NCBI GenBank assembly: GCA_016870475.1
Contig: VGBO01000006.1
Coordinates: 4,175 to 68,174 of the forward strand
DNA length: 64,000 nt
Direction of reading: 5' to 3'
DNA from: Actinomycetota bacterium
GTDB taxonomy: Bacteria > Actinomycetota > Acidimicrobiia > Acidimicrobiales > CAIXPF01
The position numbers and the translations under genes are program-made. How positions within the stretch are numbered: the stretch's first letter is position 1; each line of letters opens with the position of its first letter. Below are positions 19,072-25,068 of this stretch, one piece after another. Below the pieces are notes generated by a model, which worked only from the letters and a program-made list of their open reading frames with translations, did not search any database and was not told the origin of the DNA.

Positions 19072-19845
19072 GTGCAGCAGCGCCCCGTCGCCCTCGTCAC
19101 CGGGGCAGGTTCCGGCATTGGTGCGGCGACGGCGAACCGTCTCGTCGCCACCGGCCACGACGTGGTCGCCGTCGGACGCCGGCCCGAACCGCTCGAGGCC
19201 CTGCGGGCCGACCACGGGGAGGCGATCGAGGTGTGCCCGGCCGACCTCGCCGATGCGGAACGCGTCGTTCACGTGGTGCGCGACGTCGCCGCCCGGCGCG
19301 GGCGACTCGACGTGGTGGTGAACAACGCGGGTGATGCGTGGCAGGCGGGCATCGAGGACACCGACCCCGCCCGCTTCCGGTCACTCGTCGAGGTGAACCT
19401 GGTCGGTCCGGCGGCCGTCGTGCACGCCGCGTGGCCGACGTTCCTCGCGCAGCGGCGCGGGTGCATCGTGAACGTGTCGTCGCTCGCGCAGTTCGACCCG
19501 TTCCCCGGGTTCTTCGCCTACGCGCCGTCGAAGGCGGGCCTGCACCTGCTCACCGTGGTCGCGGCGAACGAGGGCGGCCCGCACGGTGTGCGCGCCTTCA
19601 CGGTGGCACCCGGCGTCGTCGACACGCCGCTGCACCGGCGCCTCGTCCCCGACGGGGTCGACGACGCGTTCCGTCTCGACGCCGACACGGTCGCCGGCCT
19701 CGTCGTGGCGTGTGTCGCCGGCGTCCACGACGACGCCGTCGGCACGACCCTCGCCGCCGTGACGCCCGCCGTGGCCCCCTTCGTCCGCGACTGGATGGAC
19801 CGCAACCCGAACGGGGGCGTCCGGATCATGGAGCTGCACCGATGA
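19072..19845 (+). CDS. SDR family oxidoreductase (candidate pterin/sepiapterin-type reductase by context only)
   Basis: ORF 19072..19845: [18 protein letters not shown], and YAPSKAG (YxxxK). First gene of an ATGA-coupled operon with PTPS and FolE. Confidence 0.85.
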
Positions 19846-20264
19846 CCAAGGTGACGGTCTACCGCCACGAACACTTCAACGCCGCCCACCGGCTGCACAA
19901 CCCGAACCTCGACGACGCCGAGAACCGCCGGATCTTCGGCAAGTGCAACTCGCCGAACTACCACGGCCACAACTACGAGCTCGTCGTGGCGGTCACCGGA
20001 GAGATCGATCCGGTGACCGGTTACGTGATCGATCTCGGCACGCTGTCAGCGCTCGTCAAGCGGGAGATCCTCGACCGGTTCGACCATCGGAACCTCAACC
20101 TCGACGTCGAGGAGTTCTCGGCGCGGAATCCCACGGCCGAGAACATTGTTGTGACCATATACGAGTTGCTCCGGCCCCATCTGGATGCCGGTCTCGAGCT
20201 GCAGATCACCCTCGGGGAGACCCCTCGCAACTTGGTCCGTTACCCCGCGGGAGGACCGCAATGA
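19842..20264 (+). CDS. 6-pyruvoyl-tetrahydropterin synthase family protein (PTPS/QueD fold, Cys-containing PTPS-type motif)
   Basis: ATGA overlap at 19842-19845: [13 protein letters not shown]...[36 protein letters not shown]. Confidence 0.85.
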
Positions 20265-20857
20265 CCTACGCCGCCGAGGAACGCTACGACCTCGACACCA
20301 CCGCCGCGCTCGCATCTCACTACCGTTCGGCGATCGAGCTGCTCGGTGAGGACCCGCTTCGCGAGGGACTGCTCAAGACCCCCGAGCGGGTCGCCAAGGC
20401 GATGCAGTACCTGATGCACGGCTACGAGCTCGACGCCGTGAAGATCCTCCAGAGCGCCCGGTTCCGTGAGGACGTGCGCGAGATGGTCGTCGTGAAGGAC
20501 ATCGAGCTGTACTCGCTCTGCGAGCACCACCTCGTGCCGTTCTACGGGCGGGCGCACATCGCCTACCTGCCGAACGGCTGGATCACGGGCCTGTCGAAGG
20601 TGGCACGCGTCGTCGACGCGTTCAGCCGGCGGCTGCAGGTGCAGGAGCGCCTCACCCAGCAGATCGTCGACGCCATGGACGAGGCGCTCCAGCCCGTCGG
20701 CGTGGCCGTCGTCATCGAGGCGAAGCACCTCTGCATGATGATGCGGGGCGTCCAGAAGCAGAACTCGGTGACGACCACGTCGGCGTTCTCGGGCGCGTTC
20801 GCCGAGGGGCCGACGCGCAGCGAGTTCCTGCGGCTGATCGGCTCGTCGCTGAGCTGA
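20261..20857 (+). CDS. folE: GTP cyclohydrolase I
   Basis: ATGA overlap at 20261-20264: [12 protein letters not shown]...[24 protein letters not shown]...[23 protein letters not shown]...HLCMMMRGV. Confidence 0.95.
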
Positions 20858-20866
20858 CCCGCCCGG

Positions 20867-21352
20867 TCAGCCGGCCGCTTCTGCGGCGGCTTTCATGCCC
20901 TCGAGGGTTGCGCGGATCGACGACACCGTGATCGCCTTGCGCTCATCGAGAGCTGTCGGACCGCCCTCGGCGATCGTCGGCGGGATCGTTCGCAGCTCGT
21001 AGGACTCCGTCAGCCGGGTCCCGCCGTTGTCCGTCGGCTCGAGGGTGTAGCGCCACAGGGCGATGTTCCAGTCGAGGCCGCCGGTCACGAAAGCGAACGC
21101 GCGGTCCTGTTCGACCTCGACGATCTCGACCGGCGCCTTCCACTCCTTCGTGCCGTCGCTGTTCGTCCCCACGAACATGTCGCCGACCTTGCCGGTGCCC
21201 GGCACCCCGTCGGCGTTCTTGCGCCAGTAGCCGCCGGTGTTCTCGGTGCTCCACTCGCCGTACCGCTCCATGGCGGTGACGATGCCGAACACCGTCGACG
21301 GCGATGCGGCGATCTCGATGCTGTCGGCGTGCACGTGGTGCAGGTCGGTCAT
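20867..21352 (-). CDS. SRPBCC (polyketide cyclase/dehydrase-like) family protein
   Basis: 3' part of ORF 20867..21838, ATG 21352: IEIAASPSTVFGIVTAMERYGEWS...RAFAFVTGG...WRYTLEPTDNGGTRLTESYEL. Confidence 0.8.
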   Translation of the reverse strand: MTDLHHVHADSIEIAASPSTVFGIVTAMERYGEWSTENTGGYWRKNADGVPGTGKVGDMFVGTNSDGTKEWKAPVEIVEVEQDRAFAFVTGGLDWNIALWRYTLEPTDNGGTRLTESYELRTIPPTIAEGGPTALDERKAITVSSIRATLEGMKAAAEAAG

Positions 21353-21441: not shown

Positions 21442-22725
21442 TCAGCCCGCGAGCTCGACGACCGCGGGCGCGAGGCACCGGTCGACGAGTGCACGAAGCG
21501 CCGGCTCGTCGGCCGCCTCGAGCGCGAGTGCCTCGGGGCCGGTCGCAAACCCGGCGAGCGTCGGCCGACCCGACACGACCGAGACGTCGACCCACGCCGG
21601 GATGTGGTCGGCATCGCGGCCCAGGACGTGGATGCTGCGTGCCGGCGCCCAGAACGCCTCCGGGAACGTCGCCGTCACCTTCACGACGATGCCCGGCGTC
21701 AGCCGACCGAGCGCGCCGAGGGTGACGGCCGGCAGCGGCGGTTCGAACGACGGTCGACCGGCCAGCAGCGCGCCGATCGGCGTGGTCACCACGACCGCCT
21801 CGGCGGGCAGGTCGCCCGCGGTCGTCGCGACGGTCCACCGGCCGGGCGTGGCGCCCGCCCGGATCGCGGTAGCGGTGACACCGAGACGGACGTCGAGGCC
21901 CACCGCCAGGTCGTCGACGATCCGGCCCAGGTCCGCCCCGACGAGGTGGTCGTCGCCCGGTAGGTGGTAGGGCTCCGACCGCCAGCGCAACGACAGGTCA
22001 TCGATCGGTGCGGCGGTCACGTTCTCGTAGGAACTGCGGACGAGGCACCCGAGCGCCTCCCGCTCCCAGGGCTCGAGCGGCAGCTCGGCGAGGACGTCGG
22101 TCACCACCGGGCCGAGCGGGCGGTCCGGACCTGCGGCGGCGAGCGCGTCGAGGCGGCGCTCGACGTCGATGCGCCAGACCTCCAACCGGGCGACGTCGCT
22201 CGGCCCGAGCAGCCCGCGACCGGGGACCACGAGCCGCCGTTCGCCCGTGGAGGGGTGCAGCGGCACACCGAGCCGTGCCGCGGACTCGGCGACCGGGTTG
22301 CCGACCTCGCCGTGCACCCACGCCGCGCCGGGATGGACGGGCACCCCGATGGCGTGGTCGACCCGGGCCCGTCCTCCGAGGACGGTGTCGGCCTCGACCA
22401 CGACCACACTCCCACCGCGATCCCTGACGCGCCGTGCCGCCGCCAACCCGGCGAGCCCTGCACCGACGACGACGACCCCGGTAGCGCCCGCGCCGAGCAG
22501 GCGGTCCGCAGCACGCTCACCGCTCGCCCAGGCGCCGTGCATCGTGCCCGGGTGGTCGACCGAGGTCGCCTCGCCGGCGAGCACCAGGCCCGGTGCGACC
22601 GGCTCGGCGAGCCGTCGACGATCCTCCGGGGTCCCGCCGTGGCGGAGCGCGGTGTAGGTGGTCGCGATCGACGGCGTCGAGCACCAGCGCGACGCGACGG
22701 CCCGAACGGCCCGGTTCGAGGACAT
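21442..22725 (-). CDS. flavin-containing amine oxidase, apparently circularly permuted (C-terminal FAD segment placed first)
   Basis: ORF 21442..22725. Residues ~5-72 read ...SRWCSTPSIATTYTAL...PVAPGLVLAGEATSVDHPGTMHGAWASGERAADRLL, the normal C-terminus of the family. Next comes GVVVVGAGLAGLAAARRVRDRGGSVVVVEADTVLGGRA, the normal N-terminus. The ORF ends where the first segment would normally begin. Confidence 0.8.
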   Translation of the reverse strand: MSSNRAVRAVASRWCSTPSIATTYTALRHGGTPEDRRRLAEPVAPGLVLAGEATSVDHPGTMHGAWASGERAADRLLGAGATGVVVVGAGLAGLAAARRVRDRGGSVVVVEADTVLGGRARVDHAIGVPVHPGAAWVHGEVGNPVAESAARLGVPLHPSTGERRLVVPGRGLLGPSDVARLEVWRIDVERRLDALAAAGPDRPLGPVVTDVLAELPLEPWEREALGCLVRSSYENVTAAPIDDLSLRWRSEPYHLPGDDHLVGADLGRIVDDLAVGLDVRLGVTATAIRAGATPGRWTVATTAGDLPAEAVVVTTPIGALLAGRPSFEPPLPAVTLGALGRLTPGIVVKVTATFPEAFWAPARSIHVLGRDADHIPAWVDVSVVSGRPTLAGFATGPEALALEAADEPALRALVDRCLAPAVVELAG

Positions 22726-22740
22726 CGTCCCGTCCCGGTC

Positions 22741-23979
22741 TCAGCGGTCCCGGGCCACCGCCGGGGTCAGGCGCACCTCGCGGAACGGCACGTTCTTGTC
22801 GACCTCGGGTTCCTTCGGCAGGCCGAGGATCCGTTCGCCGATGATGTTCCGCTGGATCTGGTCGGTACCCCCGCCGATCGAGGTGAAGTAGGCGTTCAGC
22901 ATCGAGTACGTGCAATCCGCCGCCCGGGCGGAATCCGAACCGCCGAGCAGCGCCTCCGCCCCGAGGATGTCGGCCTGCACCCGGGCGGCGTAGTGGAGGA
23001 TGCCGGACATGGCGAGCTTGCCGAGCGACGCCACGGGCGACGACGACCCCTGCTTCAGCTCGGCGCGGGCGCGCATGCCGTTCCAGGTGTTCACCGTGCG
23101 CATGCAGTGGAGGCGGGCCAGTGCCTGGCGGACCATCGGGTCGTCCGTGCGGCCGAGCTCGCGGGCGAGGTCGGTAAGCACAAGGTCCGGAACGGGCGCG
23201 CTCGCCTCCGAGGTGGGGTCACGGTCGGCGTCGGGCTTCGCGGTGCCGGAACGCTTCTGCACGACGCCCATCACCGCGCGCTCGTACATGAGGGCTTCCT
23301 GCAGCACCCACCAGCCGGCGTTCAGCTCGCCGAGCATGTTCGCGTGCGGGACCCGGGCATCGGTGATGAACACCTCGTTGAACCGGGAGTCGCCGGTCGC
23401 CTGACGCAGCGGCCGCACGTCCACGCCCGGCTGGCGCATCGGGAAGAAGAAGAACGTGATGCCCCGGTGCTTCGGAACGTGGAGGTCGGTCCGCGTGATG
23501 AGCAGTGCGTACTCGGCCTGCCGTCCGCCGGAGGTCCACACCTTCTGGCCGTTCACGACCCACTCGTCGCCGTCGCGCACGGCACGTGTCTGGATGCTCG
23601 CGAGGTCCGAGCCGGCACCCGGTTCGCTGTAGAGCAGGCACATGTCGATGTCGCCGAGCAGCAGCGGACGCATCACCCGGGCCTTCAGGTCGTCCGAGCC
23701 GTACTGCAGCACCGTGCCGGCCCACAGGTTGGTCACGTCCTGCGCGGACCCGGGGGCGTCGACGGCACGGAACTCGGCGTCGACGACCCGGCCGAGCGCA
23801 GCGGGGAGTCCACGGCCGTGCCAGCGCTCCGGCCAGCTCGGCGCCGCCCAACCGGCGTCGACCACCGCCTCGAGGAACGGTCGCCGCGGTGCACCCGGGG
23901 TCCAGTGATCCGCAAGCCATGCCCGGACCTCGGCCCGGACCGCCTCCTCGGATGCGATGTCGGCGACTGCGGTGTCCAC
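22741..23979 (-). CDS. acyl-CoA dehydrogenase family protein
   Basis: Part of ORF 22741..24066. GGGAGG lies 6 nt before GTG 23979: LLYSEPGAGSDLASIQTRAVRDGDEWVVNGQKVWTSGG...IGGGTDQIQRNIIGERILGLP. Confidence 0.9.
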   Translation of the reverse strand: MDTAVADIASEEAVRAEVRAWLADHWTPGAPRRPFLEAVVDAGWAAPSWPERWHGRGLPAALGRVVDAEFRAVDAPGSAQDVTNLWAGTVLQYGSDDLKARVMRPLLLGDIDMCLLYSEPGAGSDLASIQTRAVRDGDEWVVNGQKVWTSGGRQAEYALLITRTDLHVPKHRGITFFFFPMRQPGVDVRPLRQATGDSRFNEVFITDARVPHANMLGELNAGWWVLQEALMYERAVMGVVQKRSGTAKPDADRDPTSEASAPVPDLVLTDLARELGRTDDPMVRQALARLHCMRTVNTWNGMRARAELKQGSSSPVASLGKLAMSGILHYAARVQADILGAEALLGGSDSARAADCTYSMLNAYFTSIGGGTDQIQRNIIGERILGLPKEPEVDKNVPFREVRLTPAVARDR

Positions 23980-24060
23980 GTTCGGCCTCCCGGCGTTGCG
24001 TCGGCGTGCGACCGACGATGCCGCGCATCGTACCGCGGGGCCCTCGGCTACGGTCCGGCC

Positions 24061-25068
24061 ATGCACGGTCGGAAGTACTGGATGATGCTGCCGGCGAACC
24101 GCACGGCGACCGAGACCGCCGGGCTCGCCGCGGAGGCGGAGCGTCTCGGTCTCGAAGGGGTCTTCTCCATCCAGCTGTCGTCGAACCCCTTCGTGCCGCT
24201 CGCTGCGGCGGCGGTGCCCACGACCACGCTCCGGCTCGGGACCGGGATCGCGCTCGCCCTCACCCGGTCACCCCTCGAGACGGCGTTCGCCGCGCTCGAC
24301 CTCGACCACCTCAGCGAGGGCAGGTTCACCCTCGGCCTCGGCACGTCGGTTCGCTGGTGGCACGAGCAGCTCTACGGCGTCCCCTACGACCGGCCCGTCG
24401 CCCGGCTCGCCGAAGCCGTGCGGATCGTCAAGGCGGTCACCTCGGGTCGGGCCCGCGAGACCGGCCGCATCGACGGGGAGTTCTGGCAGGTCGACCTCAC
24501 GAACCTCGCCATGCGCCCGCCGTTGCGCCCCGACCTGCCGGTGTGGGTCGCGGCCCTGCGCACCCCGCTCGTGAAGGTCGCCGCAGCGGAGGCCGACGGG
24601 CTCATCGGGCACCCGTCGTGGTCGGTCGACTGGGCGCTGCAGCAGATCAACGGGCCGTACGCCACCGGGCTGCGGACCGCCGGGCGTGACCGGTCCGACG
24701 TCGAGATCAACCTGTGGCACGTCGTCGCCCCGAACCCCGACGTCGCCGAGTCGGTGCACGACGCGAAACGGCACGTCGCCACGTACGCGTCGATCGCCCA
24801 GTACGAGCCGTACTTCGCCGCCCACGGCTTCGGCGCCGAGGCCCGACGGTTGCAGGAGGCCGTCGCCGCGGGTGACCGCAACGCCGCAGACCTCGTGCCC
24901 GACGACATGGCCCGCACGTTCGTGCTGTGCGGCACACCCGGTGACGTCGCCCGCCAGCTCGAGCCGCTGTGGGAGGTCGCCGACTCGATCTGCCTGCAGT
25001 CCCCGCCGCTCCGTGCCGACGCGAAGGCCGCGTACGACCAGCGGATCGCCGAGACGTTCTACGGCTGA
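24061..25068 (+). CDS. LLM class (luciferase-like, probably F420-dependent) oxidoreductase
   Basis: 3' part of the 1034-aa ORF 21964..25068, ATG 24061: LRLGTGIALALTRSPLETAFAALDLDHLSEGRFTLGLGTS...VWVAALRTPLVKVAAAEADGLIGHP. Confidence 0.9.
   Translation: MHGRKYWMMLPANRTATETAGLAAEAERLGLEGVFSIQLSSNPFVPLAAAAVPTTTLRLGTGIALALTRSPLETAFAALDLDHLSEGRFTLGLGTSVRWWHEQLYGVPYDRPVARLAEAVRIVKAVTSGRARETGRIDGEFWQVDLTNLAMRPPLRPDLPVWVAALRTPLVKVAAAEADGLIGHPSWSVDWALQQINGPYATGLRTAGRDRSDVEINLWHVVAPNPDVAESVHDAKRHVATYASIAQYEPYFAAHGFGAEARRLQEAVAAGDRNAADLVPDDMARTFVLCGTPGDVARQLEPLWEVADSICLQSPPLRADAKAAYDQRIAETFYG

Follow-up and report, generated by a model that had tools for sequence, protein, structure and literature searches.

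Can a flavin amine oxidase carry the last part of its catalytic domain at the front of its chain and still be a working enzyme? The question is raised by a gene in a 64,000-nucleotide stretch of contig VGBO01000006.1 (positions 4,175 to 68,174) from an Actinomycetota bacterium of the order Acidimicrobiales, referred to here as the window. The gene lies on the reverse strand and encodes 427 residues, beginning with a segment of about 70 residues that normally closes enzymes of this kind. With a probability that we put at about 85%, the protein is a naturally circularly permuted, functional member of the flavin amine oxidase superfamily, which comprises the MAO, PAO and LSD enzymes. The rotated order is old and has been maintained by selection, and it defines a family that is found mostly in Acidimicrobiia.

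The order of the chain was established by profile alignment. Against the native protein, the Pfam model PF01593 (Amino_oxidase) scores 134.8 bits (E 7e-39; cut-off 19.8), doing so in two out-of-order stretches, the larger of which places residues 91-419 on positions 1-362 of the 443-position hidden Markov model (HMM), while residues 7-77 fall on positions 373-443, a match that the first 82 residues also give when searched alone (E 8.3e-15). In a phmmer search of the PDB sequences, residues 83-360 align with residues 338-626 of LSD2 (4gu0_A) and residues 11-76 with residues 708-773, which form the very end of the LSD2 oxidase domain. The usual collinear order, from the Rossmann start to a C-terminal flavin adenine dinucleotide (FAD) motif, is not the order of this protein. 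As a control, the sequence was rotated in silico (residues 78-427, then 1-77), whereupon PF01593 aligned in a single stretch over positions 1-443 of 443, with 146.6 bits compared with 134.8 for the native chain, and LSD2 338-773 aligned as one piece across the artificial junction (25% identity, E 2.6e-30). Since one end-to-end match is recovered after rotation, the breakpoints are complementary, and the chain amounts to precisely one whole domain. The rotation is a matter of topology and not of homology, and the protein is therefore filed as a permuted variant of the PF01593 superfamily.

These alignments bear out most of a preliminary description of the gene, made from its letters alone, which had proposed a circular permutation with complementary breakpoints adding up to one complete enzyme and had predicted a non-collinear profile alignment. 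It had also placed a short link before the canonical N-terminus and the stop codon exactly where the leading segment would normally follow; the link indeed measures about five residues (78-82), the GxGxxG glycines are G88, G90 and G93, and the open reading frame (ORF) ends after the helix that normally precedes the strand typified by “VTRW”.

In this scheme, the chain begins with the β-strand/loop/β-α unit that is normally last, bringing with it the “W..P...Y” active-site strand and the “AGEAT...HPGTMHGAW.SGERAA” FAD motif. A link of about five residues then leads from the end of the relocated helix into Rossmann strand β1 with its GxGxxG motif, after which the chain goes through the substrate domain and stops where the relocated piece normally comes. 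A normal-order enzyme begins at the dinucleotide-binding β-α-β unit (residues 83-119 here), where PF13450 (NAD_binding_8) matches at 86-145, PF01593 position 1 falls on residue 91, and the LSD2 alignment starts from residue 338. Residues 47-73 carry the second FAD-binding motif as LVLAGEATSVDHPGTMHGAWASGERAA, aligned with LSD2 744-770; the motif is N-terminal here whereas it is normally C-terminal.

Conservation is strongest in the part that has moved. In an alignment of 37 diverse sequences, the invariant columns include W14, P18, Y24, G51, E52, H63, G64, A65, G88, G90, G93, and K349, and 16 of the 30 invariant columns lie in the relocated segment. E111, G118, and R119 are likewise invariant, as are W136, G139, P144, and E251, with G117, H138, and E234 nearly so (at least 90%), while N143, D242, and D243 are invariant only in a second alignment of 12 closer relatives. 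Mean identity to the 36 diverse homologues is highest over residues 5-77, at 60%, compared with 37-38% in the substrate domain and 14% in the link. We take K349 to be the equivalent of the flavin-N5 lysine, namely K661 of LSD1, K300 of maize PAO, and K296 of MAO-B. Judged by its sequence, the protein has every element required of a flavin amine oxidase, comprising GxGxxG, E111, GGR, the second FAD motif, K349, and Y24.

Structure prediction, which had been proposed as a check on whether the FAD domain closes, gave a confident amine-oxidase fold. The AlphaFold2 model, built from the 37-sequence alignment, has a mean predicted local distance difference test score (pLDDT) of 95.1 and a predicted template modelling score (pTM) of 0.93, and the junction is modelled at pLDDT 97-98 as strand 47-49, helix 62-78, a four-residue turn, strand 83-87, and helix 91-102. 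A Foldseek search of the PDB ranked LSD2 first (E 1e-21; query TM-score, TMq, 0.71), followed by LSD1, a bacterial MAO, maize PAO (0.68), and SMOX (0.63), all with probability 1.00. Foldseek aligns sequentially only, here over about 360 residues, and a TMq of about 0.7 over these columns is as much as such an aligner can attain with about 77 of the 427 residues out of order. The three-dimensional fold is thus predicted to be the same as that of the normal-order enzymes.

The rotated order is shared by a large set of relatives. In a word-indexed search, 193 proteins came up at E ≤ 1e-10, all collinear with the query along 80-100% of its length, mostly 93-100%, and an exhaustive search of 1.84 billion representatives returned 10,560 matches with E ≤ 1e-3, including 723 with E ≤ 1e-30. 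Among the best 150 of these 10,560 matches, alignment in one stretch corresponds to the permuted order and alignment in two stretches to the normal order, the first two-stretch match appearing at rank 30 (P0141, 42% identity, E 3.5e-55). The 261 retrieved proteins (clusters) were then sorted by order with two HMMs, one built for the C-piece and one for the N-piece, giving 180 permuted and 77 normal-order proteins, three fragments, and one eukaryotic oddity (P0193). The link is 4-6 residues long in 136 of the 180 permuted relatives. The comparison of orthologues called for by the preliminary description thus favors the permutation, with the orthologues and some 180 clusters permuted and the normal-order relatives forming a separate group. 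In species-representative genomes, the permuted genes occur almost exclusively in metagenome-assembled genomes (MAGs) of Acidimicrobiia, and one NCBI record assigns a permuted protein (P0060) to Mycobacterium sp.

The permuted set falls into three classes according to what precedes the relocated strand. The window gene is among 61 that stand alone, with hardly any N-terminal extension, and its product is the cytoplasmic stand-alone form. A further 37 carry an extension of 25-100 residues, with a twin-arginine (Tat) or lipobox-like motif in 30 of them, and by their signals this class is probably exported. The remaining 82 bear an N-terminal domain of about 165 residues that matches GNAT acetyltransferase profiles; one of these (P0005, 586 aa) was modelled as a single confident body (pLDDT 95.2, pTM 0.91), with only about seven residues between the last GNAT strand and the “VTSW” strand. 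Twin-arginine or lipoprotein-type signals were also seen in 49 of the 66 normal-order relatives that have an extension, directly before the first structural element. Going by these motifs, the signal-bearing normal-order and basal permuted flavoenzymes are probably exported in the folded state, and the window clade is probably cytoplasmic.

Public databases name these proteins in generic terms, such as “FAD-dependent oxidoreductase”, “polyamine oxidase”, or “GNAT family N-acetyltransferase”. A search of the full-text literature (about 8.3 million papers and preprints), with most subscription journals outside its coverage, found neither a circularly permuted member of the flavin amine oxidases nor a GNAT-polyamine-oxidase fusion described, in agreement with the preliminary description, whose author knew of no permuted member. 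The protein is, to the extent that absence of evidence allows, an undescribed topological variant of a well-known enzyme fold.

How did the rotated order arise? A normal-order gene may have been duplicated in tandem or fused, with the first N-part and the second C-part lost afterwards. Such duplication and trimming, which the preliminary description had expected, is the standard model and a plausible one; it fits the complementary breakpoints, and this part of the proposal stays an inference. The duplicated state itself was not recovered, as no C-N-C or N-C-N intermediate occurs among the 261 classified proteins. P0193, with three tandem normal-order oxidase domains in 1449 residues, was considered as a duplication intermediate because the query gives a contiguous alignment over its domain junctions, and was rejected because it is a gene model from a eukaryote, containing introns and flanked by animal-type genes. 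P0193 probably represents merged tandem paralogues unrelated to the bacterial permutation. Its locus (L027, 4001-12821, NCBI GCA_013357705.1) adjoins a 985-residue multi-oxidase model and has ABC-transporter and Death-domain neighbours.

Whether the permutation arose once was addressed with a neighbor-joining tree of the rotated cores (248 sequences, 402 columns, 60 bootstraps). In this tree, the stand-alone and GNAT-fused forms make up one pure clade of 136, and 68 normal-order proteins form another pure clade. The smallest clade holding all permuted proteins includes nine normal-order ones, interleaved with the basal signal-bearing grade, and a clean split between permuted and normal order is found in 0 of 60 bootstraps. 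These observations are what one would cite for a permuted order that arose more than once, or reverted, within the subfamily. We consider such a history somewhat unlikely, given that the breakpoints are identical in all 180 permuted proteins, that the short link is so widely kept, and that 136 permuted proteins form one pure clade; moreover, the interleaving affects deep nodes (about 35% identity), is not reproducible across bootstraps, and comes from a simple distance method. The common breakpoints and link length favor a single origin, which the neighbor-joining tree does not prove.

Taken by its motifs, the protein is likely an FAD-dependent amine oxidase of the polyamine-oxidase/LSD type, and its chemistry and catalytic mechanism are probably conventional. 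It would bind FAD and oxidize the C-N bond of an amine, the amine most likely being polyamine-like or N-acetylated, with hydride passing to the flavin, K349 placed at flavin N5, and the reduced flavin reoxidized by O2 or another acceptor. We infer this type of substrate from the best PDB sequence matches, which include LSD2, SMOX, and PAOX, from the “AAW.HG..GNP” motif and the conserved acidic residues, and from the GNAT fusions.

Several results pull against this assignment. The acyl-CoA dehydrogenase (ACAD), LLM, and SRPBCC genes around the oxidase are kept only among close orthologues, and the neighbourhoods of distant members (L002-L007) hold no common substrate clue. No polyamine gene context was seen at the loci examined, the GNAT domain of the fused relatives has no informative subfamily or structure match, and no NCBIfam model reaches its cut-off for the oxidase, the best being HpnE at 59.6 bits against 283. 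A rival reading keeps the permuted fold and takes the enzyme to be something other than a polyamine-type amine oxidase: a dehydrogenase using another electron acceptor, or an enzyme whose substrate, be it a different amine or no amine at all, is connected with the ACAD, F420-dependent LLM, or pterin neighbours. For this speak the NCBIfam matches, all sub-threshold and desaturase-type (HpnE, CrtI), the fact that close orthologues adjoin ACAD, LLM oxidoreductase, and SRPBCC genes and not polyamine genes, and the Tat or lipoprotein signals on normal-order relatives and basal permuted forms. Similar signals are carried by periplasmic amine dehydrogenases of the NicA2 type, which use cytochrome c. 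We nevertheless hold this alternative to be quite unlikely, as LSD2, SMOX, PAOX, and maize PAO give the best matches in sequence and fold, the N5-lysine and the active-site tyrosine are invariant, and an amine substrate would suit the recurrent fusion to GNAT.

The GNAT fusions allow a further, doubtful idea about the polyamine-type enzyme. By placing the start of the chain in the loop before the active-site strand (W14...Y24), the permutation may have made an attachment site close to the site of catalysis, to which actinobacterial lineages then welded a GNAT domain, so that polyamines could be acetylated and then oxidized on one chain, in a bacterial analogue of the mammalian route through SSAT and PAOX; the window form would be a GNAT-less relative. 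If this were true, a circular permutation would have enabled a new domain fusion, possibly with substrate channelling.

An assembly artefact, in which a normal-order oxidase gene duplicated in tandem is collapsed or wrongly joined into a chimeric ORF, is a generic worry with metagenome-style, high-GC sequence, and GC at the oxidase gene is about 75%, the same as in the surrounding DNA. This explanation is effectively refuted. The identical protein is recorded on six contigs, which argues against misassembly, and orthologues that are 70-71% identical and 431 residues long, from an independent JGI metagenome contig (L001) and an NCBI assembly of an Acidimicrobiaceae MAG (L008), have the same order and length, with matching neighbours in L001 and a matching upstream gene in L008. 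The rotated order is, besides, common to 180 clusters from many samples. The gene directly upstream is an ACAD and not an oxidase, and the 64-kb window contains no second oxidase copy or relic and no meaningful border repeats.

A decaying pseudogene, that is, a C-terminally truncated, non-functional oxidase with a chance-fused N-terminal peptide, would account for an ORF that, read in the usual order, ends about 70 residues before a normal enzyme does, and it is effectively refuted by conservation, since the N-terminal 77 residues match just those HMM positions that are missing, no region is better conserved than the relocated segment, all key residues are unchanged in the 37 diverse members, the single-domain model is confident, and the Nei-Gojobori ratio of nonsynonymous to synonymous substitution rates (dN/dS) of the window gene against the L001 and L008 orthologues is 0.31-0.33. 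The preliminary description had named disabling lesions as a sign against a functional permutant; none are present in this intact ORF, whose catalytic lysine and FAD motifs are invariant.

The features of the locus are listed in Table 1. The ACAD gene and the oxidase are probably co-transcribed, because only 15 nt separate them, and the pairing recurs in L001 and in L008, where the oxidase is directly preceded by a 412-residue ORF of the size of an ACAD; the pairing is not found in distant family members. With 146 bits where the cut-off is 624, the ACAD matches the NCBIfam model of the pimeloyl-CoA dehydrogenase large subunit only weakly. The neighbours in L001 match those in the window, namely an F420-type LLM oxidoreductase, the ACAD, the permuted oxidase, an SRPBCC protein (carrying PF10604 in L001), GTP cyclohydrolase I, a PTPS-family protein, an SDR, and a CoA-transferase. 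A 1034-aa ORF antisense to the oxidase and the ACAD (21964-25068, forward strand) was rejected as a high-GC artefact; a real gene begins only at about 24064 and takes up the last ~335 codons, encoding an F420-dependent LLM-class oxidoreductase (TIGR03617-like, 183 bits, below the cut-off).

Table 1. Features of the permuted oxidase gene and its surroundings (window coordinates)
Feature	Coordinates	Strand	Remarks
Permuted flavin amine oxidase coding sequence	21442..22725	-	427 aa + stop, ATG start, intact; from the ORF list
Relocated segment, residues 1-77, C-terminal in normal-order relatives	22495..22725	-	HMM 373-443; LSD2 708-773; strand “ASRW”, W14..P18, aromatic-cage-type Y24, strand “LVLAGEAT”, HPGTMHGAW.SGERAA with helix 62-78
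New link, residues 78-82 (GAGAT), former C-terminal helix to Rossmann β1	22480..22494	-	
Dinucleotide-binding β-α-β, residues 83-119	22369..22479	-	VVVVGAGLAGL; G88/G90/G93; E111; GGR 117-119
Rest of FAD domain and substrate-binding domain, residues 120-427	21445..22368	-	PF01593 HMM to 362; continuous with LSD2 once rotated; W136-x-H138-G139..N143-P144, YEN..AA..DDLS, EP..LPG; last helix 407-426, normally leading into the “VTRW” strand
K349 codon, invariant Lys	21679..21681	-	37/37 sequences; aligns with the Lys of LSD2 “giiekialqf”
ACAD-family gene upstream of the oxidase	22741..24066	-	stop 15 nt before the oxidase ATG
SRPBCC/Polyketide_cyc2-like gene	20867..21352	-	161 aa; 89 nt downstream of the oxidase stop; no NCBIfam match
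SDR	19072-19845	+	
PTPS/QueD-family	~19843-20264	+	
GTP cyclohydrolase I, FolE	~20261-20857	+	257 bits

Adjacent to this group lie the SDR, PTPS/QueD-family, and FolE genes, which from their family matches look like a tetrahydrobiopterin-type pterin pathway; the trio is conserved beside the oxidase locus in L001 (9880-11665). At two loci of the fused class (L005 and L006), the GNAT-fused P0065, a close relative of the Mycobacterium sp. protein P0060, is divergent from an ABC transporter (SBP_bac_11/BPD_transp_1/ABC_tran with TOBE) that looks, from its domains, like a molybdate type; behind the fused gene comes one for cation efflux, the stop of the first overlapping the start of the second.

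Few flavoenzyme folds have been studied as much as the one shared by MAO, PAO, and LSD enzymes, which supplies both drug targets (MAO, LSD1) and biocatalysts. The existence of a large permuted family in nature means that the FAD domain tolerates termini placed before an active-site strand together with closure of the old termini by 4-6 residues, which is of direct use in protein engineering, for instance when an oxidase is to be split or permuted, when a biosensor is to be inserted, or when a site for fusion is sought. The rotated order also explains the vague names and split Pfam matches that annotation pipelines give to these proteins, and the recurrent, rigid GNAT fusion suggests an uncharacterised bacterial module of polyamine or amine catabolism.

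The permuted oxidase is neither a new fold nor a new chemistry but a rotated variant, and its place is best seen beside known systems. To the PAO/LSD branch (LSD2/KDM1B, 4gu0; LSD1/KDM1A; human spermine oxidase, SMOX, 7oxl; PAOX, 5lae; maize PAO, 1b37) it is homologous over the whole domain, sharing the predicted two-domain fold, GxGxxG, GGR, AGEAT...HGA..SG..AA, the conserved lysine, and the active-site aromatic residue. It differs from this branch in having the last ~70 residues first, joined to β1 by 4-6 residues, in having its termini in the loop before the “VTRW” strand, and in lacking SWIRM, Tower, and zinc-finger domains. Among normal-order sequences, the nearest (36-42% identity, E as low as 3.5e-55) are bacterial relatives with an “HPGT.HGA” motif (L025 from an Alphaproteobacteria MAG, L026 from Steroidobacteraceae, P0141, and other two-stretch matches). 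They have a similar domain size, and many bear Tat or lipoprotein signals, as the basal permuted forms do; unlike the permuted proteins, they keep the usual N-to-C order, and none of those retrieved is GNAT-fused.

In mammals, SSAT, itself a GNAT, and PAOX form a two-enzyme route of polyamine back-conversion as separate proteins. Here too a GNAT and a PAO-type oxidase are combined, on one chain in 82 permuted relatives, and we hypothesize that these fusions couple acetylation with oxidation; in contrast to the mammalian pair, the window gene has neither a GNAT domain nor a GNAT neighbour, and the GNAT of the fusions is not SSAT-like by sequence. Other natural circular permutants are known among DNA methyltransferases, the saposin/swaposin pair, transaldolases, and some glucanases, and are usually explained by duplication and fusion followed by trimming. 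Although its fold family differs from theirs, the permuted oxidase resembles these proteins in that the order of its single domain is rotated, its breakpoints complement each other, and the new link is short.

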